Assembly (NCBI GenBank): GCA_022072255.1
Contig: JAJVHZ010000027.1
Location: 18,660-82,659 of the forward strand
Length of the DNA stretch: 64,000 nucleotides
Reading direction: 5' to 3'
Origin: Gammaproteobacteria bacterium
Lineage (GTDB): Bacteria > Pseudomonadota > Gammaproteobacteria > JAJPIJ01
This document shows positions 37,404-64,000 of this stretch, piece by piece; the stretch's first letter is position 1; the number at the start of each line of letters is the position of its first letter. A program made the position numbers and the translations under genes. Below the pieces are notes generated by a model. The model did not search any database, was not told the DNA's origin, and saw only the letters and a list, made by a program, of their open reading frames with translations.

Positions 37404-38009
37404 CTAAAAGGTTGAGATCTGGTACAGAGGGGCAATCGTGTGAAGGACTGAACTCGCCAACGAGATCGCTCTGAGGAGCTCCGGTATCTGGTCTGTGAGT
37501 ATCCAAGCTGGTTGTGTGGTGAGTTCGGGTGGGAGGAGGTGGGGGTGGTGTTGGAGGATTTGTTGGGTGAGGGTGAGTTGGCTCTGCCAAGTAACGGTGT
37601 GCTTCATGATGGTCCAGGTGATGTGGTGGGTGTGTTGTTGGGTGATGAGGGCTTCGGTGAGAGTTTTTAGGACGGTGGTGTGGCCGGGGCCATGGGGTAG
37701 TGTGGCGTCGAGGTATGCGCGTTCGTATCCGCCTGCGGGGTAGTGGTGGTCGAGGAGTTGTTTGGCTTTTCCGAAGGCTTGTTCTGGGGTGAGGTCTGTC
37801 TTGAGGGGGAGGGCTTCTTTGAACACCAAGGTGGTGAAGGCGGTCAGGCTTTGGTTGAAGGTTTGGTAGTCGGTAGGTTCGGGGTGGGTTTCGAGGAAGG
37901 TGAGGTAGCATTTTTGGATGGGTTCGTCGTAGAGGGTGGCGAGGTGGTTCTCGTCCAGTTCGGCGAGGATCTGTTCCAGGGGGGATGGGTTGGTTTGGGT
38001 GGGGTTCAT
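37404..38009 (-). CDS. hypothetical protein, stand-alone copy of the ~195-aa repeated domain (D1)
   Basis: ATGA overlap with upstream ATPase; aligns by eye with 56436-57023, 57052-57642 and the C-terminus of 52998-54662. Confidence 0.72.
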   Translation of the reverse strand: MNPTQTNPSPLEQILAELDENHLATLYDEPIQKCYLTFLETHPEPTDYQTFNQSLTAFTTLVFKEALPLKTDLTPEQAFGKAKQLLDHHYPAGGYERAYLDATLPHGPGHTTVLKTLTEALITQQHTHHITWTIMKHTVTWQSQLTLTQQILQHHPHLLPPELTTQPAWILTDQIPELLRAISLASSVLHTIAPLYQISTF

Positions 38010-40546
38010 GGGAAGGTGTCGTATTTGAGTTCGGTATGGTTTGTGTCGCCGGTTGCTGTGGGTTCGGTTGCGGGTGGTGGGGTGCTGTATCTGTGTCGGC
38101 TGTTGCTGAGTCGTTTGGCTTCGAGGTATGGCAGGTAGTAGCGGCGGTGGGAGTTTTCGATGATTTGGTCGTGGTGGTGGGTTTCGGGTTGGGGTGGGGC
38201 GTTGAGGGTACTGATTTTTACGATTTCTGTGTGGATGCGGGCGTAGGCTTGGTAGGGGTCGAGGTGGATGATGTCTTTTGCGGTGACTTCTTCTTGGAGT
38301 TCGAGGCTGGCGCGGTGTGCTGATTCGGGGTCGCAGCGCATGATGATGGAGGCTCCGGCTCCGGTGAGGGCTTCTTGTTCGGCGGGTGTGAATTGGCGGC
38401 TGTAGTGGTGGGCGAGTATCCATCCGACTTTGGCTTTGCGGTCTTCGACGAGGCTGTCTTCGATGGCGTCGGTGACGAATTTGTGGGCTTCGTCGGCGTA
38501 GACGAAGAATGGAAGGTTGTCTTCGTATTTTTTGTTTAGGCGTCGTAGTGCGGAGATGTGGAGCATTGCGAATAGTAGGGATCCGAGGATTTGGCAGATC
38601 ATGGGTCCGATGGCTGAGAGGTCGATGAGTAGGATGTGGCCTTTTTCCATGATGTGGGGGATGTCAATTTTGCTTTGGGGGATGGAGAGGGTGAGGCCGA
38701 CGGTGTCGCTGTGGATGAGTTTGCTGAGGAGTCCTTGGGGTGGTTGGAAGGCCATTTTTTCGTAGTTTTCGAAGTCGTTTCTCCAGTATTGTTGGATGTC
38801 GGTGTCGTTGATTGATTTGAGGATTTTGCGGATGAGTGTCCGGCTTTCGTCGGATCCTCGGCGTAGGAGTGTGCTCAGGTCGCGGATGGTGCTGCCGGGG
38901 AGGTGGAGGAGGGCGTGGAAGCCGTAGCGTAGGATGTGTTCCATGCGGTTGCCCCAGGCGTTGTGTTCCATGAGTCCTTTGAAGGCGCCGACGATTTCGT
39001 CGACGGTGCGTCCGAGGTCTTGCAGGGTTCCGATGTCGAGTGGGTTCCAGCAGGGGGCGAAGGCGTGATCTTTCCAGGAGACGTAGACGACGCGGTCGAT
39101 GTGTTCGGGGGTGATGTAGTAGAGGAGTTTGTCGACGAGGGTTCCGTGGGGGTCGAGGACGCAGACGCCGTATCCTTTTGGGATGTCGTCAAGGATCATG
39201 GTGAGCATGGTGGTGCTTTTGCCCATACCGGGGCCGCCTTGGATGTGGATGCTGCGGAAACGCAGGTCTTCGGAGAGGTAGACGGTTTTGTCTTCTCCGG
39301 CGATGTTGGCGGTACCAATGGGGGTGCCTTCTTTTAGAATAGCGTCGGAGGGGATGAAGGGGGTGAGGTGAGTCATGGGGACGTCGTCGCGTTCTAGGGC
39401 GGATTCGGGTGGTAGGTGGACCAGTCCGGTGAGTTCTTGGGAGTTGAGGAGGAATCCTGGCCGGTAGGTGGTCCCCAAGTGCAGCATTTGATGAATCGCA
39501 TCAGGCGGGAAGTTGTCGCCGTAGCCTTGCTCAGTTAGACGATTGAGGGGGAGTCCGCCGTGTTGGAAGACGCACATTGAGGAGTCGAGCGAAATCATAT
39601 CGATGAGACGTTCGCTTGAGGAAGCGAGTCCGATGCGGATGGCGACTGAGAAGAAGGGTTTGTCGTTGTGGGCTTTGTTTTCGATTTCCATGGCTTCCTG
39701 GCGGTTGTCGGCTGATGGGGGGATCAGGGGCCGGTTCTGGGCGAGTGGGTTGTTGAGGGTTTTGATGAAGTGTTCCATATCCCGTAAGACGTCCACGTTG
39801 TGGTGCCAGTTGTGGGTGGGATTGGTGGGTTGGAAGGCTACTTGGTAGAGGCCGATTGCTTCCGTTGGAAGGCGGCCTATGAGGACGATGACTGGTTCCA
39901 GGGTGGAGAATTTTAGCTCGTAGGGTCGTGTGAGTAGGTGCGAGTAGGGGGGATTGGGGAAGTAGTCCAGTAAGTGGATGACCTGGCGATCCATTCGTGG
40001 GTTTCCCCAGAGTGTTTTGTTATCTGGCATGAGGCGGCATTCGGGGTAATGGGCTGCGAACATTCCTTCTAGAACCGGCCAGTCTTTGACAGTGGCAGAG
40101 AACTGGATGTCGACTCGCTCCTTGTTTCCGGCCACGGCGAAGAGGATCCGGTGGGTAAGCCCGCTGATCCCCTTGAGGAAGAGTTCGGATCGGACCCAGT
40201 CGAATGGGTGCTTCGGTGAGATCCATACCCTCCCGGTCTGCCAGACCGGCTCTTCTTCACAGGAAACCGATAGGGGAAAGCGTTGGGCGCTCCCAAAGTC
40301 TTTAGTCAGAACGATCGGTTCGTACCGGGGTTCAAGGTGTACCGGGTACGGATAGATTTCCGGGCTACAACCCTTCTCCATCTCGCCCGAAATGAGCCTT
40401 TCAGCGCTAGACCGCAGGAACTGGGGACGGCTGTACTCCACAATGGCACCGGCGATTGAACCCATGGATCTAGTTTTCTCCCGATCCTCTAGCGGCAGGC
40501 AAGACCTCCACTGTTCGGTTTCGCCTCTCAGGTTACCCCCGTTCAT
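38006..40546 (-). CDS. VirD4/TraD-like coupling-protein ATPase (FtsK-HerA superfamily)
   Basis: Walker A GGPGMGKS, CVLDPHG, WNPL, WGNRMEHIL, Walker B YADEAH, ILAHHY; start uncertain. Confidence 0.8.
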   Translation of the reverse strand: MNGGNLRGETEQWRSCLPLEDREKTRSMGSIAGAIVEYSRPQFLRSSAERLISGEMEKGCSPEIYPYPVHLEPRYEPIVLTKDFGSAQRFPLSVSCEEEPVWQTGRVWISPKHPFDWVRSELFLKGISGLTHRILFAVAGNKERVDIQFSATVKDWPVLEGMFAAHYPECRLMPDNKTLWGNPRMDRQVIHLLDYFPNPPYSHLLTRPYELKFSTLEPVIVLIGRLPTEAIGLYQVAFQPTNPTHNWHHNVDVLRDMEHFIKTLNNPLAQNRPLIPPSADNRQEAMEIENKAHNDKPFFSVAIRIGLASSSERLIDMISLDSSMCVFQHGGLPLNRLTEQGYGDNFPPDAIHQMLHLGTTYRPGFLLNSQELTGLVHLPPESALERDDVPMTHLTPFIPSDAILKEGTPIGTANIAGEDKTVYLSEDLRFRSIHIQGGPGMGKSTTMLTMILDDIPKGYGVCVLDPHGTLVDKLLYYITPEHIDRVVYVSWKDHAFAPCWNPLDIGTLQDLGRTVDEIVGAFKGLMEHNAWGNRMEHILRYGFHALLHLPGSTIRDLSTLLRRGSDESRTLIRKILKSINDTDIQQYWRNDFENYEKMAFQPPQGLLSKLIHSDTVGLTLSIPQSKIDIPHIMEKGHILLIDLSAIGPMICQILGSLLFAMLHISALRRLNKKYEDNLPFFVYADEAHKFVTDAIEDSLVEDRKAKVGWILAHHYSRQFTPAEQEALTGAGASIIMRCDPESAHRASLELQEEVTAKDIIHLDPYQAYARIHTEIVKISTLNAPPQPETHHHDQIIENSHRRYYLPYLEAKRLSNSRHRYSTPPPATEPTATGDTNHTELKYDTFP

Positions 40547-44148: not shown

Positions 44149-47100
44149 GTGGTAGCGGTCATGGAGACAGATCTTCCGGAGCGTGGGGAGGGTGTTGCTG
44201 TCTCGGGGGGCCAGTCTGGGCTTCCGGGTGATCCGTTGTTGCGAGTGGAGATTGATCCGGCGGTCGTGAATCCAAGTTGGGTGGCCACGTATGAGTTGTT
44301 GAGTATTCCTGATCCTTCCCGTTATTCGCTTAAGGCGGCGAGTCACGGGAATCCACGGGCCGCGATTGCCAGAGCTCATGAACAAGTGCTTCGTCTTATG
44401 TCTTCCTTTGGTTCCAAGGATGTGGTCTTGAGTCTTCGGTTGCATTTTGATCCGTCGTGCCGTCCGCTTCAGAGACGTTTGCGGGTTTTTCTGCGTATCG
44501 GTTTGAGTGAGAGGATGCCTTCCGAATTGGTGGTGGATCTGGTTGAGAGGGGGCCGTTGTGTCCCTTTTTCGGATTGGAGAGGGTGGTTGAAGGAGGTTT
44601 CCCGAAGGATTGGGATCTTGCTGATTATTGTTCGGGATGGGAGCTCGTTCGTGAGGAGATGTTGTTGCCCAGTTTGTTGGATCGTTCCGATAATCCGAAT
44701 GCAATTTCACTTGGTTATTATCTTCCTGGCCGTTTTTCGGCTTCGAGAGATAATGACGGACTTCTCCTTGACCGGCTTCTTTCGGGTGTTGAATCTCCGG
44801 TGGTAGTGGATCTGATGTTGACGTCTTGGGCAGCGAATGATTTGAGGAGGTCCCAGATTGCTTTGGCTGCTGCTTATCAGAAAGTGAATTCGTTTCGTGA
44901 CTTGGGCAAGAAGCGTATTCGGGGAATTGATCAGCGGGATTCACTGGAAATTCAGGGCTACGAGAAGGATGCCTTGGCGGATGAGGCTGTTCGGTATCAC
45001 CAGCGTTTTCGTGAGTTGTTGTGGAAGCCTTTGCTTCGTTTTCACTTTCGTGTGTTTGGGGTGCATGGGGAGGTTGCCCGGCTTGTGGCTGGTACGTTAG
45101 CTGAGTCTGGTCTAAAGGAGGGGAAGTATTCGCTCCTCCAGATGGAGGCCGGTTTGGATTTGGATGTAGCGAAAGATTCCGTGCTGGCATGCCGTTTTGT
45201 GGCGGTTCCATTCGATCACCAGGTCTGGGTAGGATGGATTTCTGGAGCGCGGGAGAAACCGAAGAGTGTTTGGCGGCACCTGAGTTCCCTGAGCCGGATT
45301 GGGACGGTTGAGGAGTTGGCTGGGGTATTTCGTTTGCCGGTGGGAGGTTTCGGTTCGGCTACGTGTATTCGCATGGATACCGATCCTGATATGGGGCGAA
45401 GGCCGGATTCGTTGATGATCGGGGCGGACCTTGAGAGTGGATTCGATGATTCCTCCTGGGCCTGGAAGCCTACGGCGGATTTGAAGTTGCTGTTCGAGGA
45501 GAGAGAGGCTGCTGTTTCCCATCTTTATCTCCCTTTGTCAGATCTTGCCAAGCACGCCTTTGTCGCGGGTGCGTCGGGGAGCGGTAAGACGACCGCTCTT
45601 TTTCATCTGTTGGTTCAGATGGCGCGTGAGGGTGTTCCATTTCTTGTGATCGAGCCCGCCAAGACGGAGTACCGTATATTGAAGATGTTGGGAGAGCATC
45701 CGGATCCTTTGGTTCAGGATTTTTCGCGCCGGCTTCGCGTTTATACGCCAGGCAAGGAATCGCTTTCTCCGCTTCGATTGAATCCTTTCATTATTCCAAA
45801 AGGAACCGAACCTGATCTGCATCGGGCTAATCTTCTTTCGTGTTTTGAGGCGGCCATGCCATTGGGTGGGCCTTTGCAGGCGTTGCTGGCGGAGGGGATT
45901 GAGCGGGTTTATGAGCTTTGTGATCCTCCGGACTTTCCGCAGATGAAGGATTTGTTTTTGGCGAGTAGGCAAATCCTTGAGGAGAAGTCCTATTCGGGGG
46001 AGGTTCGTGACCACTTGTCGGCGATGATAGAGGTTCGTTTGGGAATGTTGACCAAAGGGGCCATCGGGAAGGTGTTCTCCTCGAAGGATAACCTTCCTGC
46101 CATTCGTGACCTTCTCTCCCTTCCTGTCTTGATCGAATTGGATTCTCTGGCGCCGAATCATGCGTCGCTTTTGACACTTTTTATCCTCACGGCTATTCGT
46201 GAGGATGTGAAGGCGGCGAGGGTGTCGGAGCACGGGGTACTTCATCATGTGACGGTATTGGAGGAAGCCCACAACCTGGTGGGCCGGACGCAGGAGGCAC
46301 GTGCATCAGAGGAAAATGCTGATCCCAAAGCCTATGCGGCGGAATTTGTGACACGAATGCTGGCGGAGATGCGTGCCTTGGGAGAGGGGATGTTGATTGC
46401 GGATCAGCTTCCTTCGGCGGTTGCTCCGGAGGTGGTCAAGAACACGTCCTCGAAATTGGCTCACCGGTTGGTGAGTGTGGATGACCGTGAGGATCTTGGG
46501 GGGGCAATGCTGCTGGATGCAGCGCAGACGGAGGAGATCGCCCGCCTTCAACCTGGGGAGGCGTACTTTTATACCGAAGGTTTGTATCGCCCGCGCAGAG
46601 TCCGGGTGCCGTTTTCTTTGGGCTATCTCGGTCTGGTAAGTGGTTTTCCTCGGGATGCCGCTTTGAGAGCGGTTCTGGAAAGGGAGGACTGGTTTTGGGA
46701 TGGAGCGCTTCAAAGAGGTCGAGAGAAGACCAGAGCCTTGCTTGGCAGGATGGGTGAATGGGTGGATGGAATCCTTCAGTTGAGAACAGACCTTCTCAAG
46801 GAGTTACGGCGGTTCGGGACGTTGTCGAAGGTGGAATCGGATCGTCAAAAGAAGGAGGCGGCCATTTTTGATCATGCTGTGGTTGGCCTTGAGGGGAGGC
46901 ACAAGCAGCTGAATCCGGACAGGCTTTATAGGAAGTATGTGGAAGAGGTTCTTGAGGATCCGGATGTTCGATTGGCCCAGCGGCGAAAGGATTCTGAGTC
47001 TCAGGATTTGGCGGGTCAAGTAAAGATCCGTTGGTCTGGTCTGGTTGAGAAGTGGGGTTCCAATTCGAAGGAGTTGCTTGAGGCGCAGCGGCTTGTGAGG

Positions 47101-47166
47101 GTGCTTCGGAATGTTGGTCTTCTAGTCCCGGAGAGAAAGGAGAAATGCCGTGGCGATTGGAGATAA
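44149..47166 (+). CDS. HerA/VirB4-like ATPase (DUF87-type) with long N-terminal domain and C-terminal coiled coil
   Basis: KHAFVAGASGSGKT, LVIEPAKTEY, LRLNPF, Walker B VLEEAHNL, ADQLPSAVAPEVVKNT. Confidence 0.88.
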   Translation: MVAVMETDLPERGEGVAVSGGQSGLPGDPLLRVEIDPAVVNPSWVATYELLSIPDPSRYSLKAASHGNPRAAIARAHEQVLRLMSSFGSKDVVLSLRLHFDPSCRPLQRRLRVFLRIGLSERMPSELVVDLVERGPLCPFFGLERVVEGGFPKDWDLADYCSGWELVREEMLLPSLLDRSDNPNAISLGYYLPGRFSASRDNDGLLLDRLLSGVESPVVVDLMLTSWAANDLRRSQIALAAAYQKVNSFRDLGKKRIRGIDQRDSLEIQGYEKDALADEAVRYHQRFRELLWKPLLRFHFRVFGVHGEVARLVAGTLAESGLKEGKYSLLQMEAGLDLDVAKDSVLACRFVAVPFDHQVWVGWISGAREKPKSVWRHLSSLSRIGTVEELAGVFRLPVGGFGSATCIRMDTDPDMGRRPDSLMIGADLESGFDDSSWAWKPTADLKLLFEEREAAVSHLYLPLSDLAKHAFVAGASGSGKTTALFHLLVQMAREGVPFLVIEPAKTEYRILKMLGEHPDPLVQDFSRRLRVYTPGKESLSPLRLNPFIIPKGTEPDLHRANLLSCFEAAMPLGGPLQALLAEGIERVYELCDPPDFPQMKDLFLASRQILEEKSYSGEVRDHLSAMIEVRLGMLTKGAIGKVFSSKDNLPAIRDLLSLPVLIELDSLAPNHASLLTLFILTAIREDVKAARVSEHGVLHHVTVLEEAHNLVGRTQEARASEENADPKAYAAEFVTRMLAEMRALGEGMLIADQLPSAVAPEVVKNTSSKLAHRLVSVDDREDLGGAMLLDAAQTEEIARLQPGEAYFYTEGLYRPRRVRVPFSLGYLGLVSGFPRDAALRAVLEREDWFWDGALQRGREKTRALLGRMGEWVDGILQLRTDLLKELRRFGTLSKVESDRQKKEAAIFDHAVVGLEGRHKQLNPDRLYRKYVEEVLEDPDVRLAQRRKDSESQDLAGQVKIRWSGLVEKWGSNSKELLEAQRLVRVLRNVGLLVPERKEKCRGDWR

Positions 47167-57642: not shown

Positions 57643-57796
57643 GCACCTCCCAAGGAACTGGCAGCAAAGAGCATTCTAGCACTACACCAAAGACCCAACC
57701 AACCAGAAAATGTCAATGAAATCCATCCCCTAGGAACAGGGAATCGTCGGGGAGGGTGGGCGGGGTTACTCGTTCTTACCAGTTGATTCGGCTTCT

Positions 57797-58315
57797 CTAC
57801 TGGGTCGTGGCCACGATTGGGGGCGTGATGCTGTCTCGTTTGGCTTCAAGGATGGCGGAGTGGATTTCGAAGGTGCTCTGGCAGTGGTCGCGAAGAGCTT
57901 GGTTTTCGTGGTGGAAGATCACTTCCATTCCCGTGAAGAGGTCGGTGTGGTTTCTGAGTACGGTTAGGTTGTGTTCGCTGGCTTCTAGAACGAGTAGGAA
58001 GTGTACTTCCTCTTCCATTCCTTCCGTGAAGAGGTCTGGTCTGGCTTTTTGGAAGTATTCGCGTGCCCGGTGCACCTGGCGGATGGTTTCTCCAACATCC
58101 GCGAGCACCGGCTTGAGTTCGCACACCTGCCAGACCCCGCCTCCCCTTCCCGCTTTACGCTTCCTGAGGACCACGTCCACCACTCCCCGGTCCCCATAGT
58201 GGTTGTAAGGCACCTCACAACCCACAAACTCGAATCCCTCCCGTAAAGAAACCGAAATAAAACTCTGCATGAGGGCCGCATGCTTCCCATCATAGATCGC
58301 CGACTCCAACACCAT
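57797..58315 (-). CDS. PD-(D/E)XK restriction-endonuclease-fold protein
   Basis: EVPYNHYGDRGVVDVVL..VCELKP..DVGETIRQV (D..ExK with following Q helix). Confidence 0.65.
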   Translation of the reverse strand: MVLESAIYDGKHAALMQSFISVSLREGFEFVGCEVPYNHYGDRGVVDVVLRKRKAGRGGGVWQVCELKPVLADVGETIRQVHRAREYFQKARPDLFTEGMEEEVHFLLVLEASEHNLTVLRNHTDLFTGMEVIFHHENQALRDHCQSTFEIHSAILEAKRDSITPPIVATTQ

Positions 58316-58431
58316 GCCTCTCCCACGCAGCAACACCTCTATAAAAAACTTCACCACCACCCCAAAGAAACAACACACGCCATAGGGGGGGGTTTTTTGT
58401 CGGGGGTGTGGGGGTGGTGAAGGGGGGACGC

Positions 58432-58923
58432 CTATTTGGCGTCCTGTTGGATTAGTGTCCAGGTGTGGTGTGAACTGTTCCAGTTGTTGGCTCGTTGGAG
58501 CCGTTTCCTGCATCTTTTCAGGAAGTGTTGGCGGCGGGTTCCGGTTGCTGGTTTGTATTGGGGGTTGCATTTGAAGCAGTTCCAGAACACGGTCCCTCTT
58601 GGGGGATCAATGGCAGGTTGAAGAGGTAGTCCGCAGTGGCACCACGCGTGGAAGGTGAGATATATTTCAGTGTTCTCTCTTGTCCTACTCACCTCTACTG
58701 GCTCTGTTTTCCATATGATCAATTCCCAGATAATCTTTCGTATCTCGTTTTTGATTTCATGCAGTCCCGTGTACATGAAGTATTTGTTGAAGGAGTATGG
58801 GTCTCTGTCGGTTACACTCCTCCAGATCAATTCCTGTAATTCTTCGATTTTTTTGATGAACGTTCCGAGGGTGCTCTTCACGTCCTGGGTTTTTTTGTTG
58901 GTTCTTTCGGTTTCTCCTTTCAT
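58432..58923 (-). CDS. fused A+B protein, tandem unit 3 (coiled coil plus CxC/CxxC domain)
   Basis: MKGET start with SD GGAGG; WCHCG..FWNCFKC..ATG..R..FLK; 163 aa equals 80+83. Confidence 0.7.
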   Translation of the reverse strand: MKGETERTNKKTQDVKSTLGTFIKKIEELQELIWRSVTDRDPYSFNKYFMYTGLHEIKNEIRKIIWELIIWKTEPVEVSRTRENTEIYLTFHAWCHCGLPLQPAIDPPRGTVFWNCFKCNPQYKPATGTRRQHFLKRCRKRLQRANNWNSSHHTWTLIQQDAK

Positions 58924-59129
58924 GTTTTTCTTGCCTCCGATCAGTTTCGATGTATTTTCCTTTTTGTGCTGTGTCTTGTTCTGTAAAGGAGATACGGTTT
59001 CTCCTTGTTTTCCAATCACAATGGTGTCAATAGTGGGTGGGGTTCAGCCCGGTCTTGGAATGGGCCCAAACAACCATTGCTTTTTCCCCTTCCCAAAGGG
59101 GGGTTGCGATATCTGCGGAGGGAGACCCC

Positions 59130-59381
59130 CTAAATGGGGTCCTCCTCTAGCAGTTGTTCCGCGTACCATACGGCATATTGGTCTCCGACTTTATCCATAT
59201 ACTCCTGGAATGATTTCAGGAATTGACGGCGGATCGGTCCGGTTGCTCGCGTAAAATGCGGGAAGCACTGAAAGCAATTCCAGAACAGGAATCCCTTTTC
59301 GGCGTTGTAGGCTGGCTCGACTCGCATTCCACAAACGCATTTGCCGGTGAATCGGGAACCAATTCCATAGGGGAAAGTCAT
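59130..59381 (-). CDS. small CxC/CxxC putative Zn-binding protein B, unit 2
   Basis: RFTGKCVCG..EPA..FWNCFQCFP..ATG..RRQFLK; ATGA overlap. Confidence 0.72.
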   Translation of the reverse strand: MTFPYGIGSRFTGKCVCGMRVEPAYNAEKGFLFWNCFQCFPHFTRATGPIRRQFLKSFQEYMDKVGDQYAVWYAEQLLEEDPI

Positions 59382-59620
59382 GCTCTCACCTCCTGGTTTG
59401 CTGCTGCGTTCAGGAATACCATTTCACTCCAGAGTACGCGGATTTTGGTTTCGATCTCTTTCATTCTCATGTGGACATACTGCCCCTGGTCTTCCGGGCC
59501 GGATTCTCCGCTTCTTGCGACGATGGATTCCTTGAGTCTTCTGGCTTCTGCCGCGAGATCGACAAGACGTTTTTCAAAGTCCCGCATTTGTCTTTTGATG
59601 CTTTTGTTTTTTCCTTTCAT
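59378..59620 (-). CDS. 80-aa coiled-coil protein A, unit 2
   Basis: SD GGAGG; MKGKNKSIKRQMRDFEKRLVDLAAEARRL..EVRA matches the ArdC C-terminal extension. Confidence 0.72.
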   Translation of the reverse strand: MKGKNKSIKRQMRDFEKRLVDLAAEARRLKESIVARSGESGPEDQGQYVHMRMKEIETKIRVLWSEMVFLNAAANQEVRA

Positions 59621-59860
59621 GTTTTCGTACCTCCGTTCTGTTTCAATATTCTTCGTTTCTTTTCAGTCCAGACCGGCTTGAAAGCCGGTGACTGAAGAGC
59701 CTGATTTCGTTTCGCCTTTCTATTCACGCGAAGCGTGGTGGCGTCAATCTGTGGCTTATGGGGATCGGTTCCGATTTCAGAACCGATCCAAGGAAGCCAC
59801 GGTTTCCCATTCGGCTTTTGGTTCCAAATGGGTTTGGCCCGATGTGTGCAGAGAGACCCC

Positions 59861-60112
59861 CTAAGTGGGGGTTTCTTGAATCCGTTCCAGAACATACTGG
59901 GCGCCGTCCCAATCTCCGGCGCGGATCATCTGCTTTCTGAATCTCTTCAGAAAGCGCCGCCGACGGCTTCCGGTTGCCTTTGTGTAAATGGGGAAGCAGT
60001 GGAAGCAGTTCCAGAACACTACTCCGAGCCCGGAATGAAAGGCGGGCTCGACGGTTCCACCACAACAACACTTTCCAGTGAAGCGGGCGTAATGCGGGTA
60101 AGGTGAGATCAT
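59861..60112 (-). CDS. small CxC/CxxC putative Zn-binding protein B, unit 1
   Basis: MISPYPHYARFTGKCCCG..FWNCFHCFP; 83 aa, same length as unit 2; ATGA overlap at 60109-60112. Confidence 0.72.
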   Translation of the reverse strand: MISPYPHYARFTGKCCCGGTVEPAFHSGLGVVFWNCFHCFPIYTKATGSRRRRFLKRFRKQMIRAGDWDGAQYVLERIQETPT

Positions 60113-61299
60113 GCTCTCACCTCCGGGTACCCTTCCGCGTTTAGTCGAACCGTTTCTCTCCAGAGTTTGCGGATTTGTGCCTCGATTTCTCCAATCCTCA
60201 TGTAGAGGTATTTCCGGTGGTCTTCCGGGTCTGGTTCTCCTCTTCGTACAAAGAGGCTTTCTTGGAGTCTTCCGGCCTCTGCCGCGAGTTCGGCTAGCCT
60301 GATCTCCAAGTCCTGCATTTGGTTTTCGATACTTTTGGTTTCTCCTTTCATGTTTTCGTACCTCCGATATGTTTCGATTTGTTTCGATTCTTCCCGGTCC
60401 GAACCGGCTTCTAGGCCGGGGACGGAAGAGCATGATTTCTTAGTGAGTGCCTGGTCTGAGCCATGGAGGCCGGCGAGGATTTCTCTCGCCGTGTCCCGGA
60501 TCGCTTCCAGGGAGTGATAAAGTGTCTCTTTGTCTCCCTGGTAGATTTGGATGTAATCGCTCGATGAGGTGCTGGTGTCCAAACCGATTACCGAACAGAC
60601 CACGAAGGCTACGGCTTCGGCTTCCGTTTCTTTCACTGTCTTGGATGGGTTTTTCTCTCCCGGTTTCTGGTGTAGAATTTCATGCGCGAACTCATGCACC
60701 AAAACAGAGAATTCCTCAGCGGCGGGAAGGCCGGGCCGAATCAGGATTTTTCCGCCTGATGAGGCCCCATCGGCGAGCCCTAAGTCCGGCGTGGATTCGA
60801 TGGCGATTCCTCTCTTCCGAATGGTCGCAACCAAGGAAGAAAGGAGTCCGCCTGGATCGCCCCGGACGCGGGCGAATTCCGGAAGGGGTTTTCCCTCTGT
60901 CTGGTTGATGTCAAAAACGTGGGCCGGACGGAATCCGAAAAGGATCTCTTCCTCGGAATCGGATTCCGTCGATTTCCTATTCCGGACGATGGGGGCAAGG
61001 ATGAGAATTCCTTTCTCACCTTTCCGGACGTTTCTTCCCAACGATTTCCAAGTTTGAAACCCGGCCACGCGAGAGGCATCGGGTTTCTGTGTGCCGATCA
61101 AGAAAACATTCCTCAGGCTGTACCGGGTAAATCTCGCCATAGTGGAAAGGTATTCCTTGAGCGTCTGGCTCTTTCCGTTCTCCAGATCCTGCGCGAGCCT
61201 TTCGAGTGCCTGATCGATCAAGCCGTGGGCGCGGGTTACTTTGGGGTGGGGCGCGCGGGGAGGGGCGCGGATGAGTGGCAAAGCAGCGGGGGAGTTCAT
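60109..61299 (-). CDS. ardC: ArdC-like anti-restriction protein (ssDNA-binding domain plus HExxH zincin) with 80-aa C-terminal extension
   Basis: RYSLRNVFLI..VAGFQTWKSLGRNVRKGEKGILILAP, HVFDINQTEG, LVHEFAHEILH, ETEAEAVAFVVC. Confidence 0.85.
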   Translation of the reverse strand: MNSPAALPLIRAPPRAPHPKVTRAHGLIDQALERLAQDLENGKSQTLKEYLSTMARFTRYSLRNVFLIGTQKPDASRVAGFQTWKSLGRNVRKGEKGILILAPIVRNRKSTESDSEEEILFGFRPAHVFDINQTEGKPLPEFARVRGDPGGLLSSLVATIRKRGIAIESTPDLGLADGASSGGKILIRPGLPAAEEFSVLVHEFAHEILHQKPGEKNPSKTVKETEAEAVAFVVCSVIGLDTSTSSSDYIQIYQGDKETLYHSLEAIRDTAREILAGLHGSDQALTKKSCSSVPGLEAGSDREESKQIETYRRYENMKGETKSIENQMQDLEIRLAELAAEAGRLQESLFVRRGEPDPEDHRKYLYMRIGEIEAQIRKLWRETVRLNAEGYPEVRA

Positions 61300-61718
61300 G
61301 CTCTCCCCCCCGTGTGCTTTGCCTGGTCAATAGCCGCCCCGATTTCCGCGCGGTTCTTATCTTTGCGTGTCGCGTAGATCGTATACACGGGCACGATAAA
61401 CGGTTTCGGGATTTGCCAGTCCTCAAGTTCTGTCTTGAGTGGTTCCGGATCGAGTTCTCCCTTGATTCTCCGAAGGACTGATTGCAGAACTTCAATTTCC
61501 TCCAAAGGGAAAAAGACCACTTGTTCATAGCCGCGCTTTCGTCTTAGATCCGGATCGATGACTCTTAAGTAAACCGTCTTGCGAACCTCCGGCGGCGTTA
61601 CTAACGGGCTGTATCTCCTCGCTAGTGCTAAATTTCCTTCTTCTTCATGCACTCCCACTAGGAAGCGCCCGATTCTTATTTCACCCAATCCGCGTTTACT
61701 CAAATGGGCGAACATCAT
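61296..61718 (-). CDS. hypothetical protein
   Basis: SD GGAGGTG; ATGA overlap with ardC. Confidence 0.65.
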   Translation of the reverse strand: MMFAHLSKRGLGEIRIGRFLVGVHEEEGNLALARRYSPLVTPPEVRKTVYLRVIDPDLRRKRGYEQVVFFPLEEIEVLQSVLRRIKGELDPEPLKTELEDWQIPKPFIVPVYTIYATRKDKNRAEIGAAIDQAKHTGGRA

Positions 61719-61773
61719 GCTTTCACCTCCATTAAGTGAAAAAAACTTGTGCTCACTGGCCGGTAGTGACACT

Positions 61774-62046
61774 CTCCCGAAAGAGACCGCTGAATAAGCC
61801 AGCGGGGAGTCCTGTGACTGGGCCGGGTCTCCAATGAGTGAAGGTTTTTTTCCATTTTTTCCTTTTACCTTTACGGCGGCACGATCGATAAACTTTTAGG
61901 GCCGCGCCCGACCCCGAAGGGGGAAAAGTTTACGTATCGGGCCGCCGTTTGAAGAAAAAATGGAAACAAAATCGAGCGAAGCCGGAGACACGGTCCACCA
62001 AACTGGACTCCCCGATGGCACAAATGTCGGCGGTCTCTTTCGGGAG
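61774..62046. repeat. ~270-bp nested inverted repeat (giant stem-loop) in non-coding DNA
   Basis: Perfect paired arms of 17, 9, 6, 13, 8 and 9 bp arranged concentrically (coordinates in findings). Confidence 0.85.
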
Positions 62047-62351
62047 GCATACAGACGCGTGCGGGTGCGTCCATGCGTTATGTTTCATCGTCACGTAATG
62101 TCGTACGGAGAGATCAAGCGGATGCATAGGGTGGGGTTCTCCCAATGGAATTCGAATTCCGGTCACTGAGACAACTGCTGTGTTTTCAAGTAGTTGGCGT
62201 TGTCCCTTTGTGTCCTTTATTGACGGCATTCTGTCCTCATTGACCCGAATAACGGACACCTTTTGAGGCAATAAGGGACAATGCGGACAGAGACTGAGGA
62301 TGGTCCAGTCAAGGGGTTGTGGGTGGATCCGGTGGAAGATACGTGAATGGT

Positions 62352-63290
62352 TCATTGGATTTCACCTGAGCGATGGTGTTCGAGCCAGGCCCTGCCGAGA
62401 GAAGGTCCCAGGATGGACTCGTTGTCCTCTTTCTGGTTTCCCGCGCGATTCCATACGAATCCGCCGATTCCTCTGGCTTGGATCTGAACCCAGTCGGTGA
62501 TCCAGATGAAATCGTTGGGAGGAACCGACTGGACTAGCCGGGACAACTGACTGGACCGTGTTCGGTCTTGTGCCACGAAGAGCAGCCGGAAACCGTTGAA
62601 CTTCACATTCCATTCGGTCTCGTAGCGCTTGTATGCATTGGATTGAAAGTAGGCTTGGTAGCGCCGGACCTTTTCCGAGATCGCCCCTTGGCTACCAGTG
62701 GCCGTGGAAAGGCCCTCGCTTCCCATGTCGATTTCCACGAAGAAAAGCAGCGCCTTTCCTGATTGGGGCTCCGTGAGTGAAAGAACTCCATCCGGTGTGA
62801 ACCATTCCAGCTCACTTTCCAGATCGGAATCGGCCGCGAATCCCGCAATGTGAGGATGACCCGATTGGAGTGGCTCCAGAAATGGATTGGTGGATGTAAG
62901 GAAGCGCACTTCAAGGAAGGTTGGCACCAAGGCCAGTTCCCGGACGGATATGGCAAACCAGTTTACGGCGAGCTGGTGCTCCAATGTCCGGGTTGAGACC
63001 CACTGAACCCGCTCGATCGAAACATCCGCGCGAAGAAGGGCGCTCTCCTTGAGGAGATTGACAGCCTCTTTGGTGAGGGTGAACACCTTCTCCGGCTGGC
63101 CCCGCTTTCCTCTGAATCCCCTCGTGCTGGAGGCAACAAGTCCCTGTTCCGCCATGCCATCCGCCCAACGCCTGGCCGAACGCACCACCCCGAATCCTAA
63201 GGCGGACATTTGTTCGCTGGTAAGAACCCCGTATTCGACGAGGAGTGCCAAGCGGGTCTTGTCCAGATCGGTAATCTTCGGATGTCCCAT
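62352..63290 (-). CDS. replication-relaxation (Replic_Relax-type) relaxase
   Basis: SD GGAGG; N-terminal winged HTH; EHQLAVNWF, FTPDG..FFVEIDMGSE..KVRRYQAY. Confidence 0.8.
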   Translation of the reverse strand: MGHPKITDLDKTRLALLVEYGVLTSEQMSALGFGVVRSARRWADGMAEQGLVASSTRGFRGKRGQPEKVFTLTKEAVNLLKESALLRADVSIERVQWVSTRTLEHQLAVNWFAISVRELALVPTFLEVRFLTSTNPFLEPLQSGHPHIAGFAADSDLESELEWFTPDGVLSLTEPQSGKALLFFVEIDMGSEGLSTATGSQGAISEKVRRYQAYFQSNAYKRYETEWNVKFNGFRLLFVAQDRTRSSQLSRLVQSVPPNDFIWITDWVQIQARGIGGFVWNRAGNQKEDNESILGPSLGRAWLEHHRSGEIQ

Positions 63291-63433
63291 CGTGAGTACC
63301 TCCCACAGGAGAGCGGCAGACGGGTCAGGTTTGTTCGGCGGTGGAGTTTGTTTTCCTTGAAAAACTCGATGTGGTGATACTCCTGGCCCGGGACACGAAA
63401 GGTTTAAGAGGATAAGGCATCTGGGATCTATCC

Positions 63434-63769
63434 ATGTTTCGATGGCTTGTTTTCGGCCTTCTGGGAGGCTTGGTCCTTGGGTGTTCCAGCACCCAAACCG
63501 GGACTCCATCGGCTTGTGAGGGGATCGACTTGTCGGGGTATGTCTTCAATCTGGAATCTGAGGTTCCCCGGATCCATCCCGACCTGGCTTTGTACTTCCC
63601 GGAGTGTGCTAATGAGATTCTCCTGGGCCACGGTCTGCAGAATCTACATGTAGCCACCTTCGAGGAGCGTCGAAATCAGTTTGGACCTCTCTGGGAGGAA
63701 TCCTTCCGGATTGAGGCGTGTGTGAACCGAACCTGGCGAGGCCGAGTTCCTTCGATCTGCCAATCATGA
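63434..63769 (+). CDS. putative small lipoprotein
   Basis: MFRWLVFGLLGGLVLGC signal peptide with lipobox; divergent from the relaxase. Confidence 0.5.
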   Translation: MFRWLVFGLLGGLVLGCSSTQTGTPSACEGIDLSGYVFNLESEVPRIHPDLALYFPECANEILLGHGLQNLHVATFEERRNQFGPLWEESFRIEACVNRTWRGRVPSICQS

Positions 63770-63918
63770 ACCTGATCTGCTGGGTGACTGTTGTCTCCCA
63801 TCAAAAGCCTTTCTTTAGTCGAGTCTGTGGTGTCATTACCCCGTCCGAACACGAATACCGAAGAGACCGCTCATTGATACAAAGGACCCGAAATCAGGAC
63901 ACAGAAAGGAGAGTCGAG

Positions 63919-64000
63919 ATGACTCTTAAGGATGATCCTCAGATAGATCCCTCCGAGGTGGAGCGGGTTTCCCGCACCACATTCCAGCGGGATGCGTGGC
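63919..64000 (+). CDS. 5' fragment of a gene running off the window
   Basis: SD AAGGAG then ATG ACT CTT AAG..., open to the end of the window. Confidence 0.45.
   Translation, partial: MTLKDDPQIDPSEVERVSRTTFQRDAW

Follow-up and report, generated by a model that had tools for sequence, protein, structure and literature searches.

What does a nested stem-loop of 273 nt do between a relaxase gene and an operon that leads to an anti-restriction gene? The question is raised by one locus in the window, that is, the whole stretch of 64,000 nucleotides analysed here, for which a preliminary description made from the sequence had proposed a single-strand promoter of the Frpo/ssi kind or an origin of transfer (oriT), with a structured non-coding RNA or a MITE as alternatives. 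The answer depends on how the structure is built, on where related structures are found and on which strand has been selected to fold.

The hairpin and its genetic surroundings

The features of the locus, in order of position, are the following.

57797..60106, minus strand: rest of the operon, from gene calls and comparison with the related locus L001
60109..61299, minus strand: gene for an ArdC-like anti-restriction protein (ArdC-N domain, E = 1.8e-11, plus a weak match to M78/IrrE-like peptidases)
61296..61718, minus strand: orf140, the first gene past the hairpin, with no family match
61719..61773, minus strand: leader from the hairpin base to the start codon, with two small hairpins and a Shine-Dalgarno sequence
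61774..62046, plus strand: giant nested hairpin of 273 nt, from folding, an inverted-repeat finder and a sliding-window scan
61870..61954, minus strand (coding sense, the strand of the model match): conserved family core ('type A'), from a covariance model and nhmmer
61889..61932, plus strand: helix S, in which TAAACTTTT (61889-61897) pairs with AAAAGTTTA (61924-61932), enclosing Q and P; from sequence and fold
61899-61909, plus strand: mini-hairpin Q, GGGC-CGC-GCCC, from sequence and fold
61912-61922, plus strand: mini-hairpin P, CCCC-GAA-GGGG, from sequence and fold
62147..62160, no strand: perfect 14-bp palindrome GGAATTCGAATTCC, between the repeat cluster and the hairpin
62201..62289, no strand: phased repeat cluster, TGTCC at 62201, 62211 and 62232 and GGACA at 62254, 62276 and 62285
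62352..63290, minus strand: MOBC-type relaxase gene (Replic_Relax, PF13814), 312 aa (Pfam E = 1.7e-18)

The relaxase, orf140 and ArdC-like genes all lie on the minus strand, and the hairpin separates the relaxase gene from the orf140-ArdC operon. This context had been recognised in the preliminary description and is borne out by the Pfam matches to Replic_Relax and ArdC-N, with the correction that the relaxase is the 312-aa protein encoded at 62352-63290 and not the product of a 385-aa ORF. The protein combines a winged-helix domain with a PD-(D/E)XK nuclease domain, and its conserved residues include P166, D167, E186, D188 and K207; family PF13814 has been equated with MOBC (PMC5357655) and assigned to the PD-(D/E)XK fold (PMC3424549). 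On the other side of the hairpin, family searches with orf140 gave no match and its AlphaFold2 model was poor (pLDDT 49). ArdC-N genes occupy the equivalent position in the related loci L001 and L005 and in the Planctomycetota elements L033 and L061. The remainder of the operon consists of three repeats of a pair of small genes, encoding a coiled-coil-like and a Cys-rich protein, followed by one gene whose L001 counterpart has a precomputed match to PDDEXK_18 (PF26437). The Shine-Dalgarno sequence (GGAGGTG, 61724-61730) is 44 nt from the hairpin base at 61774, where about 45 nt had been estimated, the ATG is at 61718, and the leader is 98% identical to that of L001.

Folded as single-stranded DNA, the plus strand of 61760-62060 forms a single nested stem-loop of -92.9 kcal/mol, compared with -46.2 +/- 4.2 kcal/mol for shuffled sequences (z = -11.1; none of 100 shuffles was equally stable). 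This is the folding check that the preliminary description had asked for; the arm pairs it had listed were all recovered at the same positions, and the two mini-hairpins that it had named are present at the apex. The minus strand of the region reaches -82.2 kcal/mol, also as single-stranded DNA (z = -10.2). Among 1,593 sliding 280-nt windows covering the 64 kb, the hairpin was the most stable (-83.4 kcal/mol versus a mean of -36.2, s.d. 8.5), and its 17-nt outer arm does not occur in the window other than in the two arms themselves. When the two strands of the hairpin were compared directly, the values were -92.1 kcal/mol for the plus and -81.3 kcal/mol for the minus strand, and a gap of 9-11 kcal/mol was also found in the relatives L001, L005 and L007, which means in all four members of the lineage of the window. 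We infer that the plus strand, which is the template strand of the operon and the better folder, is the functional one.

The upper part of the hairpin is the part that is conserved. An inner stem X with conserved bulges carries the AT-rich helix S on top, and P and Q complete a three-way junction. The covariance model R1 recognises this core in the window with 62.5 bits (E = 1.3e-14), the nhmmer match runs from 61948 to 61876, and covariation across the family includes the two central pairs of helix S. Identity to L001 is 100% over positions 61881-61940, versus about 65-85% in the relaxase gene. The hairpin is a local, unusually long-stemmed member of a family of cis-elements.

Further DNA between the relaxase gene and the hairpin is also preserved. 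The six copies of TGTCC/GGACA compare with 0.2 expected per 180 nt and follow one another at spacings of 10, 21, 22, 22 and 9; the phased cluster, about 150-155 nt from the hairpin, is kept in relatives and could be a site at which a regulator or the winged-helix domain of the relaxase binds. More distant elements have analogous repeat arrays of other sequence, with a spacing of 21-22 bp, after the relaxase gene. The 14-bp palindrome is perfect in four of five aligned sequences, L001 being one base off. A separate observation concerns the synonymous sites between 37.4 and 57.6 kb, at which G greatly exceeds C and T greatly exceeds A on the plus strand regardless of gene direction, in the window and in L001. 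A strand that is frequently single-stranded would be expected to show such a skew, and it is the better-folding strand that shows it here; an account of the skew as time spent single-stranded, with nic at 62.2, 57.7 or 37.4 kb, was set aside, as no simple model gives a sharp-edged plateau. Metatranscriptome contigs over 58.5-63.7 kb have an even depth of 2-6x, intergenic regions included; they break at the palindrome, with no start site readable.

A family of structures ahead of establishment genes

DNA structures of this family, placed before establishment (anti-defence) genes, are widespread and have apparently had no earlier description. The core was detected in 15 of the 79 genome loci of the scan, from Planctomycetota, Desulfobacterota, Omnitrophota and Lentisphaerota, only on the relaxase-sense strand and 0.2-4 kb downstream of Replic_Relax genes. 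A circularly permuted form is present in Ignavibacteria, Zixibacteria, Gemmatimonadota and Syntrophales, so that the two forms together are known from about seven phyla; the core is also present in at least 120 metagenome contigs. The carriers include a cultured species, Desulfocarbo indianensis SCBM, in which two copies of the element family occur (L021 and L025), and the complete chromosomes OY759590.1, OY776568.1, OY759599.1 and CAWGVV01. The consensus includes the conserved blocks TATCGTAAA and TTTATCGA; most members were collected by a pattern-based scan that fixed 23 bases, and conservation at those positions is uninformative. Searches outside these elements were negative: phage contigs gave essentially no match, and neither blastn (word size 11) of 60000-64000 against the 72,556 plasmid records of PLSDB, in which F- and I-type plasmids are presumed to be included, nor tblastn against the same plasmids found any, so that there is no direct bridge to pAD1 or CloDF13. 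The Rfam search suggested in the preliminary description, run with Rfam 15, returned nothing relevant at E <= 10 in 60000-64000 of the window and nothing at E <= 1 in nine typical loci.

The arrangement of the copies is highly regular. One, two, three and four copies were counted in 78, 30, 9 and 2 loci, respectively, on one strand throughout the 119 loci, with distances between copies clustering at about 155, about 310 and 410-470 nt. From the end of the core to a co-oriented start codon the median is 86 nt (IQR 78-94), and inside arrays it is 88 nt (IQR 85-90). Between core and ATG the family has a second, variable, perfect hairpin and a GGAGG, and the outer stem is flanked by CUCC motifs. 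The copies serve a variety of small genes of establishment type, among them DUF4326, a very common family of 98 aa, acidic peptides and Zn-ribbon proteins, with ArdC sitting further along. Searches of Pfam and of PDB sequences with the 98-aa protein were empty, and the idea that it is PC4/YdbC-like was dropped; likewise, the 278-aa protein of L020, which has an HPPY motif and had been taken for a methyltransferase, gave no Pfam match.

In its copies, its single strand and its spacing to the start codon, the family is distributed as promoters are. A sigma-70 -35/-10 pair was nevertheless found on neither strand of 61500-62500, in keeping with the preliminary description, which had seen no clear boxes. 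Across 123 family members, a match to at least 8 of the 12 sigma-70 positions was present in 23 (coding strand) and 26 (template strand), versus about 42 in shuffles, which is fewer than chance. A -10-like TACGAT lies across the boundary between S and the bulge in most members, the copy in the window reading TACGTA.

The structure itself is strongly supported by covariation. In alignment A5, 23 of the 35 pairs change on both sides, and the cells with changes on both sides number 314 versus 82 in shuffles (none of 500 shuffles reached 314; slid controls collapsed); alignment A3 agrees. The structure used in these counts was set by hand and verified by pair counts, as the register chosen by RNAalifold from the first MAFFT alignment was poor. 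Pair counts also reveal which strand pairs. Read on the coding strand, one mid-helix pair is A-T in 59 sequences and A·C in 55 of the total of 125; the template strand has A-T or G·T at the same place. Over all pairs the coding strand has 112 A·C versus 33 G·T cells, or 57 versus 33 without that pair. Computed as DNA, 18 of 20 instances fold better as the template strand (mean -2.7 kcal/mol versus -0.05 in 217 control windows; p = 2e-4), and with RNA parameters the antisense strand is also the better one in 18 of 20. The P loops are mostly of the form G..A on the template strand (GAA, GCA, GGCA, GAAA; also GTAC and AAA), the P hairpin being C(UUCG)G on the coding strand. It is on the template strand of the downstream genes that selection has maintained pairing, which argues against an mRNA leader and for single-stranded DNA.

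Rival readings of the hairpin

The origin of transfer considered in the preliminary description would make the hairpin the large inverted repeat of a MOBC-type oriT, as in oriT2 of pAD1/pAM373: the winged-helix domain would bind the TGTCC cluster, the PD-(D/E)XK domain would nick in the extruded or single-stranded hairpin, and the hairpin would also aid termination and religation. The neighbouring gene does belong to Replic_Relax, the MOBC family (PMC5357655), to which TraX of these plasmids also belongs. In pAD1 the binding site of TraX is a set of five direct repeats at 70-120 bp from nic, and oriT2 unites phased short repeats and a large inverted repeat with an apical GC mini-hairpin, adjoining the relaxase gene (PMC12857230). 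The region between the genes for the coupling protein and the relaxase of pTEF1, a pAD1-like plasmid, reads as five 11-12-bp repeats that abut an inverted repeat of 140 bp tipped by a GC mini-hairpin; the window has its six phased copies about 150 nt from the hairpin, and of the 29 metagenome loci that extend more than 2.5 kb upstream, 21 have the relaxase gene there on the same strand. Distant relatives keep the hairpin core and have repeat arrays (21-22 bp spacing) of differing sequence, which fits the pattern of a conserved inverted repeat with element-specific repeats reportedly noted by Francia and Clewell in 2002. However, unlike oriT2, the element studied here is downstream of the relaxase gene and 56-160 nt before a start codon, exists in up to four copies and may be kilobases from the relaxase gene and the repeat array. 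In 41 of the 119 loci, two to four direct copies are separated by small genes, and deletion by the relaxase would be a risk if nic sites were repeated. Between the relaxase gene and the first copy lie anywhere from 236 to 4,040 nt, 8 of the 29 metagenome loci have no relaxase within 2.5-11 kb upstream, and the arrays of L029 and L020 are about 730 nt from the core. The core is instead locked to the next start codon, which is not a requirement of an oriT. Further, the oriT repeat of pTEF1, which on reading has no sequence similarity to the element here, is upstream of traX, and the position equivalent to that of the hairpin in the window is taken by another hairpin, which follows traX and precedes small genes and an anti-CRISPR. 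A MOBC oriT is expected to be a single site at a fixed short distance from its binding repeats, and the family as a whole is not arranged in this way. The relaxase family and the resemblance to pAD1 speak for an oriT, copy number and spacing against it for the family as a whole; it is the main rival of the reading preferred below, and we regard it as rather unlikely.

The hairpin could also act as sense RNA, in the form of a structured 5' leader or intercistronic element of establishment mRNAs (a stabiliser, or a signal for processing, antitermination or translational control) transcribed from a promoter further upstream, for instance by read-through from the relaxase gene. The tight distance to the Shine-Dalgarno sequence and start codon, the intervening second hairpin, whose 3' arm often includes GGAGG, the CUCC motifs beside the outer stem and the C(UUCG)G hairpin on the coding strand would all suit such a role, and read-through is plausible since no promoter lies between element and gene. 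The EGeRS1 elements of the pLS20 family of Bacillus are likewise multi-copy, promoter-less and structured before ardC and other establishment genes, and may act as RNA or as DNA; compared by description, they differ in being four-branched and 325-750 bp long, whereas the elements here have a three-way junction and about 110-270 nt (PMC8708921). An RNA read in the sense direction is nevertheless hard to reconcile with A·C at the mid-helix pair in 55 of 125 sequences, with the excess of A·C over G·U (112 to 33), with the better folding of the antisense strand in 18 of 20 instances even under RNA parameters, and with the absence of an Rfam match in the window and in nine typical loci. The structured non-coding RNA of the preliminary description is, in its sense or leader form, disfavoured by this strand asymmetry, and the sense-RNA reading appears quite improbable. 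Two other RNA candidates were rejected. A ribozyme of the hammerhead or twister type, brought to mind by the circular permutation, lacks its core motifs and an Rfam match, and an antisense small RNA is unlikely, given that the structure is not followed by a terminator and that such an RNA would be needed separately for each of ten unrelated gene families.

The attC sites of integrons fold as the bottom strand, have conserved extrahelical bases and lie in arrays between small, promoter-less, co-oriented ORFs. The elements here resemble them in all these respects, and the hairpin might correspondingly be a strand-specific recombination signal for an enzyme of the element, most obviously the MOBC nuclease, that bounds exchangeable anti-defence cassettes. 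One core stands before many unrelated gene families, units of element and small ORF are tightly packed in a single orientation, and the family is tied to one relaxase family. Recombination of this kind would also fit the circular permutation and the tandem copies, whose junction recreates the permuted form, and in pAD1 the MOBC nuclease TraX recombines two oriT copies (PMC5714925). However, the consensus has, by reading, none of the integron-type core sites of the R/L kind (RYYYAAC/GTTRRRY), the few loci whose genes were examined showed no integron integrase, and the elements are coupled to the downstream ORF, attC to the upstream one. Coupling at 86 nt to the start codon that follows suggests an expression signal, and ordinary homologous recombination between conserved cores of about 110 nt can explain the shuffling; a recombination signal is given only a slim chance. 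A MITE, another selfish palindromic repeat or a chance palindrome would account for a long, near-perfect, intergenic inverted repeat, but hardly for a single copy in the 64-kb window with no dispersed copies found, for copies elsewhere that keep the same genetic context and orientation, for covariation with conserved bulges or for a z-score of -11. The MITE alternative of the preliminary description was consequently rejected, and the whole group of explanations is scarcely credible.

A possible single-stranded DNA signal on the transfer strand

The explanation that we tentatively prefer, at somewhat less than even confidence, is that the hairpin is a signal on the transfer strand for early expression or priming, Frpo-like in function and not a relative of Frpo because sigma-70 boxes are absent. 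During conjugation, the plus strand of the window would enter the recipient as single-stranded DNA, and the element would fold into a long stem capped by the three-way junction, with the AT-rich 9-bp helix S, the conserved bulges alongside and the two GC mini-hairpins. The folded junction might then be read by RNA polymerase, a primase or another structure-specific factor, and RNA synthesis would start and leave through the stem into orf140-ArdC. The outcome would be early, transient expression and probably a primer for the complementary strand; once the DNA turned double-stranded, structure and signal would vanish. We infer three things here: the molecule that folds is DNA and not an antisense RNA, it is the plus strand that is transferred, and its folding leads to transcription or priming.

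Single-strand origins (sso) of rolling-circle plasmids and ICEBs1, and the minus-strand origin of f1, are orientation-specific imperfect palindromes of 150-300 nt, and an sso folds only in the displaced or transferred strand, where it recruits RNA polymerase or primase for a primer. Orientation specificity, imperfect palindromy and size are shared with the element here. In contrast, an sso occurs once per replicon without coupling to a start codon, whereas this family is repeated before genes, and neither the ssoA motif CS-6 (TAGCGT) nor TAGCGA is present on either strand of 61774-62046, whose apex loops are CGC and GAA. The comparison with Frpo/ssi promoters, known in classes 1-3 from F, ColIb-P9 and pESBL, goes further: these are large hairpins before anti-defence genes (PMC11541004, PMC12672017), screened for at a threshold of less than -75 kcal/mol (PMC12672017), below which the present hairpin falls with -92.9 kcal/mol. 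Like them, it is intergenic and precedes anti-defence or establishment genes of a conjugative element, several co-oriented copies may occur per element, the strand that folds is the template for the genes served and there is no usable double-stranded promoter. Unlike them, it has no sequence similarity to Frpo/ssi and no plasmid match, forms no -35/-10 boxes in its stem, and conserves a three-way junction with bulges, which also exists in a circularly permuted form. The hosts are environmental Planctomycetota, Desulfobacterota, Ignavibacteriota and others, the relaxase is MOBC and not MOBF or MOBP, and activity on single-stranded DNA is here a prediction from sequence. Of the Frpo/ssi-like role first proposed, then, a covarying structure that heads the ArdC operon, is reiterated before other establishment-type genes and pairs on the template strand, as a function of that type demands, has been upheld; kinship to Frpo/ssi, sought among 72,556 plasmids, and sigma-70 pairs have not.

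Some observations count against a promoter on single-stranded DNA. No -35/-10 pair can be placed in the stem, and in the permuted type the strands leave the junction through different helices, which fits a linear promoter poorly and suggests that the junction is recognised as a three-dimensional shape. If oriT lay at the repeat cluster and the plus strand were transferred, the operon would enter the recipient last and not first, which would also speak against such a promoter. The EGeRS1 elements that precede establishment genes in pLS20, also structured and multi-copy, sit on an element that transfers the non-template strand (PMC8708921), so that such elements need not be single-stranded promoters; pairing selection in the present family acts on the template strand. 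A variant that we consider distinctly unlikely is that the junction would not be a disguised sigma-70 promoter at all, and would instead be a structure-specific single-stranded DNA signal for one of the element's own factors (the MOBC PD-(D/E)XK relaxase, a primase or a single-strand-binding protein), repeated before every anti-defence gene. If true, it would represent a new modular cassette system in which each gene has a start, or a recombination site, that exists only on single-stranded DNA, and would account for the circular permutation, the specificity to one family of elements and the shuffled downstream genes.

To our knowledge, single-stranded promoters are the only route by which anti-defence genes can be expressed before the DNA becomes double-stranded, and we know of their demonstration so far only in enterobacterial F- and I-type plasmids. 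If the role preferred here, as a signal on the transferred single strand, is true, the principle would extend to integrative elements with MOBC relaxases in at least seven mostly uncultured phyla from sediments and sludge, and would rely on a compact, strongly covarying, sequence-conserved structure that lacks recognisable -35/-10 boxes and tolerates circular permutation. Activity on single-stranded DNA would raise the question of the factor that recognises it, and would make the element a simple tag by which sequence searches of metagenomes could find anti-defence islands in leading regions. Should the hairpin instead be the nic hairpin of MOBC relaxases, it would provide the first general oriT model for this poorly studied relaxase family. 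The small genes that follow each copy constitute an enriched list of candidate anti-defence proteins.

The hairpin and its locus

Folded as single-stranded DNA, the segment 61760-62060 forms a single nested stem-loop that contains all of the arm pairs listed in the preliminary description, each where it had placed them. The plus strand reached -92.9 kcal/mol against -46.2 +/- 4.2 for dinucleotide shuffles (z = -11.1) and the minus strand -82.2 kcal/mol (z = -10.2), and the hairpin window was the most stable among 1,593 sliding 280-nt windows of the 64 kb (-83.4 against a mean of -36.2, sd 8.5). The outer arm has no further occurrence anywhere else in the 64-kb window. The hairpin is a real structure, far above chance and single-copy within the window. 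Gene order and hairpin are both kept in contigs whose relaxases are 72-97% identical. The hairpin apex (61881-61940) is 100% identical to that of the close relative L001, as against ~65-85% per 60-nt bin for the relaxase gene, and the changes in the hairpin among relatives either fall in internal loops or retain pairing. Every gene of the locus lies on the minus strand.

Features of the hairpin locus and of the mobile element in the window
62352-63290, minus: Replic_Relax protein gene (312 aa, true length taken from homologues)
62201-62289: phased repeats, six TGTCC/GGACA copies, after the relaxase gene in the direction of transcription
62147-62160: perfect 14-bp palindrome GGAATTCGAATTCC, adjoining the repeat cluster just downstream of the relaxase gene
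61718-61296, minus: orf140, first gene after the hairpin
61299-60109, minus: ArdC-N/M78-like protein gene, next after orf140
58430-60106, minus: small-gene pair, three times in tandem, after the ArdC-N gene
57797-58570, minus: last operon gene (the L001 counterpart has a precomputed PDDEXK_18, PF26437, match)
57660-57740, minus: sigma-70-like promoter with extended -10 (TTGGTT, 18 nt, TGCTAGAAT; sequence reading)
44149-47166, plus: large ATPase 2, weak match to HerA/FtsK/CedD/TraD-type DNA translocases
38006-40546, minus: large ATPase 1, weak match to the same translocases

The relaxase family PF13814 is a PD-(D/E)XK nuclease family (PMC3424549) that corresponds to the MOBC relaxases (PMC5357655), of which TraX of pAD1 is the member studied experimentally (PMC12857230). 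The TGTCC/GGACA copies are in helical phase, and the region 62147-62289, largely kept in close relatives (the palindrome is one base different in L001), is a candidate for the place where the relaxase or a regulator binds. A variable spacer separates the palindrome from the hairpin (62046-61774), and two small hairpins and the Shine-Dalgarno sequence GGAGGTG lie between the hairpin and orf140. Each small-gene pair encodes a ~85-aa Lys/Glu-rich protein and a ~80-aa Cys-rich protein with the motif FLFWNCFQC; a CCCC..GGGG hairpin stands at the end of pairs 1 and 2, and strong structure (z = -7.4) is also present in the intergenic DNA at 59660-60130. Because two HerA/FtsK/coupling-protein-like ATPases lie further along, it is plausible that the mobile element is conjugative. 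Around both ATPases are encoded large proteins that match no family, a Ser/Thr kinase carrying zinc ribbons and TPR repeats, and a WD40 protein; the whole group may constitute a very divergent conjugation apparatus. Beside the mobile element, window positions 1-37100 hold three RND heavy-metal efflux sets (HlyD/CusB-like, AcrB/CusA-like and outer-membrane factor) and a copper-type P-type ATPase with YHS and HMBD domains; the sequencing runs containing window DNA came from activated sludge, bioreactors and biofilms.

A family of three-way junctions

In many of the 79 genome loci fetched with an alignment of 18 relaxases, the DNA 0.15-1.4 kb beyond the relaxase gene folds with unusual stability. 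On the coding strand, the core common to these folds reads X5' - TTA - TCG - TAAAnnTTT - (P: CCCC-TTC-GGGG) - TC - (Q: GGCC-loop-GGCC) - T - AAAnnTTTA - T - CGA - X3', in which a stem X with conserved bulges leads to a 9-bp AT-rich helix S and on to the GC mini-hairpins P and Q. The family is defined by this three-way junction. The two apex mini-hairpins of the preliminary description are exactly P and Q, and the window copy is a core of type A, one of two circular permutations, atop an exceptionally long stem. With a profile and a covariance model, type A was found on the relaxase-sense strand only, at 45-100 bits, with a palindromic echo of 15-34 bits on the opposite strand; the window core scored 62.5 bits (E = 1.3e-14, covariance model). 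Type A matches came from Planctomycetota, Desulfobacterota, Omnitrophota and Lentisphaerota, some loci having two or three, and type B was found in Ignavibacteria, Zixibacteria, Gemmatimonadota, Syntrophales and others. Type B arranges these blocks as Q5' - S - X(loop-closed) - S - P - Q3'; against the type A profile it aligned in its native form as two out-of-order pieces (10-18 bits) and, once permuted in silico, as a single collinear piece (17-27 bits). Both types co-occur in the same loci, co-oriented, each before successive genes. No Rfam 15 family, searched as the preliminary description had proposed, matched the window element or nine typical loci, and the PLSDB plasmids contained no similar DNA and no similar relaxase. 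The hairpin is the tip of a large conserved family, not found described in Rfam or the literature searched.

Beside the type A outer stem lie the unpaired conserved motifs CGCTCCGG (5') and CCTCCGCT (3'), at columns 2-10 and 117-124 of A5, the alignment of metagenome core copies. TTCGCTC, a sequence related to these motifs, is seen again where helix X ends, within the type B loop and in the window stem (reverse complement GAGCGAA, 61973-61979). A Hydrogenedentota locus (L048:7048-7452) has, downstream of its relaxase gene, two tandem copies of a ~190-nt GC-rich structured unit, possibly one more variant of the element without relation to the others.

Scanning by exact pattern located the core in at least 120 metagenome contigs and, among viral contigs, in one only. 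Among the matches listed, metagenome loci had one copy in 78 cases, two in 30, three in 9 and four in 2, multiple copies of one locus always sharing a strand, and copy-to-copy spacing in the loci listed clustered at ~155, ~310 and 410-470 nt. A same-strand Replic_Relax gene was present 236-4,040 nt upstream in 21 of the 29 loci listed with >2.5 kb of upstream sequence; in the remaining eight there was none within 2.5-11 kb. From core end to co-oriented start codon the median distance, again among the matches listed, was 86 nt (IQR 78-94), and 88 nt (IQR 85-90) within arrays, where the median gap from the preceding gene's stop to the next core was 33 nt. Within the core-to-start interval lie GGAGG and a perfect but variable hairpin. 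Most of the genes served have no annotation, and they are of diverse kinds.

Genes served by or neighbouring the element (counts among the matches listed)
190-aa family: served gene, 34 copies
78-aa family: served gene, 34 copies
Zn-ribbon family: served gene, 22 copies
DUF4326: served gene, 8 copies
Acidic peptides: served genes
98-aa family: most frequent element neighbour, 41 of 120 loci (for example metagenome locus L112:1587-1907)
ArdC-N genes: within the same islands

The 98-aa family, with the motif AKFKAGxVxAAIWEN...RRYKDKNG, matched nothing in Pfam or in a PDB sequence search and looks like a candidate PC4/YdbC-type ssDNA binder. On another comparison contig, L186, positions 8978-10057 (oriented) hold the gene for a TOTE conflict-system archaeo-eukaryotic primase (PF22548, E = 1.3e-29). 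It lies on the strand opposite to two tandem cores ~1.3 kb away, and the locus has no relaxase within 11 kb.

The folded strand

Covariation was counted on 125 distinct metagenome copies; the search pattern had fixed 23 of the bases, so that these positions are necessarily invariant. Standard pairs made up 92.2% of cells against 84.3% in shuffles, and both-side changes occurred at 23 of 35 pairs, in 314 cells against 82 in shuffles, a number reached by none of 500 shuffles; when partners were slid by one column, pairing fell to 56-57%. The relaxase-anchored set gave the same picture. The two strands are not equivalent in pairing. One mid-helix-X pair is A-T in 59 and A·C in 55 sequences on the coding strand, A-T alternating with G·T on the complementary strand, and its T/C switch recurs among copies sharing a locus. 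Coding-strand A·C and G·T cells number 112 vs 33, or 57 vs 33 minus this pair. The template-sense strand was better folded in 18 of 20 instances (mean -2.7 kcal/mol) whereas 217 control windows from the same loci were strand-symmetric (mean -0.05; Mann-Whitney p = 1.5e-4), and in the window lineage the strand difference was 9-11 kcal/mol in all four members. In the long stem, the alignment reads as one plus-strand wobble each in the window and in L001, at different positions, where the minus strand has a C·A mismatch. GNA loops with a C-G closing pair are especially stable in DNA, and the P loops on the template strand are mostly G..A (GAA, GCA, GGCA, GAAA), GTAC and AAA also being present. 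We conclude that pairing is selected on the template strand of the downstream genes.

A strand asymmetry extends over 37.4-57.6 kb, where at third codon positions the plus strand has G>>C and T>>A in genes of either orientation (GC skew -0.58 to -0.78 in minus-strand genes and +0.07 to +0.59 in plus-strand genes). Its edges are sharp, at ~37.4 kb and ~57.2-57.6 kb, and its onset in L001 is at the same gene. The direction hints at C and A deamination on a frequently single-stranded strand, and the skewed plus strand is the better-folding strand of the hairpin; none of the simple exposure-time models fitted the skew. On a reading of the sequence, a sharp edge coincides with the end of the ArdC operon and the sigma-70-like promoter at ~57,690. 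This promoter precedes a 196-aa gene and has a TTGACA further upstream.

Possible promoter, priming signal or origin of transfer

A leader acting in the sense mRNA is disfavoured by the strand test and is improbable. Antisense RNA, possible in principle, would have to do without a terminator and would require a separate RNA for each of ~ten unrelated gene families. The remaining natural candidate is template-strand ssDNA, and we tentatively favour the reading that the element acts most like an ssDNA promoter or priming signal. Frpo/ssi promoters consist of several large hairpins before leading-region genes and cease to act once the complementary strand has been made (PMC11541004, PMC12672017); if the template strand is the one transferred, the geometry of the element is precisely theirs. 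No ordinary promoter was found in 61500-62500 (the preliminary description had likewise identified no clear -35/-10 boxes), and sigma-70 pairs near 123 family members were rarer than in shuffles (23 and 26 on the two strands vs ~42). The missing promoter fits the ssDNA-promoter picture, but the same sigma-70 test separates the element from Frpo, whose defining -35 and -10 boxes rebuilt in the stem are absent here. The element is not a member of the Frpo family, though in function it would resemble the Frpo/ssi-like role first proposed. The sole promoter-like feature, TACGAT followed by GGGG, is on the non-template-like arm and comprises the end of helix S, CGA and the first base of the conserved TAA bulge; since the window copy reads TACGTA, it is kept only as a hypothesis. 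Type A strands exit the junction by way of helix X and type B strands by way of helix Q, and in both types the AT-rich helix S is directly upstream of the exit helix, compatible with a melting or entry site. Because of the circular permutation, recognition of the three-dimensional junction, not of a linear hexamer pair, is suggested.

Taken by itself, the window can reasonably be read as containing an oriT here: its phased TGTCC cluster lies ~150 nt from the hairpin, and in distant relatives the relaxase gene is followed by repeat arrays with 21-22-bp spacing whose sequences are different (for example GTGTGGATTAATTC vs AAATTGTATCnTAATTC, differing by element).

Repeat arrays and a hairpin compared with the window
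L029:5975-6184, L020:2215-2410 and L021:6554-6597 (comparison loci): direct-repeat arrays, 4-6 copies, after the relaxase gene
pTEF1 (L088), 17326-17525: second large hairpin, -46.8 kcal/mol, z = -4.4

Francia and Clewell reportedly placed nic, in 2002, inside a ~140-bp inverted repeat conserved between plasmids whose repeats differ. In the pAD1-like plasmid pTEF1, five 11-12-bp repeats likewise read as abutting a 140-bp inverted repeat whose apex carries a GC mini-hairpin, between the coupling-protein and relaxase genes. The only characterised MOBC oriT, oriT2 of pAD1, has TraX-bound direct repeats with nic 70-120 bp away (PMC12857230). The family as a whole is fitted poorly by oriT, however: copies are reiterated in direct orientation, they lie at widely differing distances from the relaxase gene and repeat arrays, some are far from any relaxase gene, and every copy is locked to the next start codon. 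Moreover, the pTEF1 position equivalent to that of the window element, downstream of traX, contains a different hairpin (17326-17525). The element may instead, or also, be a MOBC nic hairpin, a less probable reading; a cassette signal read by the relaxase is improbable, and the rest of the probability falls to mechanisms other than those named here.

The pTEF1 hairpin at 17326-17525, downstream of the MOBC relaxase gene, precedes small genes, the anti-CRISPR AcrIIA9 and SSB, and is a candidate ssDNA promoter in Enterococcus; at its apex an unpaired TATATAAAC adjoins a GAGC-AA-GCTC mini-hairpin. The ssDNA-promoter and oriT functions need not be mutually exclusive. Conjugation would deliver the template strand as ssDNA if that is the strand transferred, and by gene content and layout the loci of the family are islands of the establishment or anti-defence kind (compare PMC11541004, PMC8708921).
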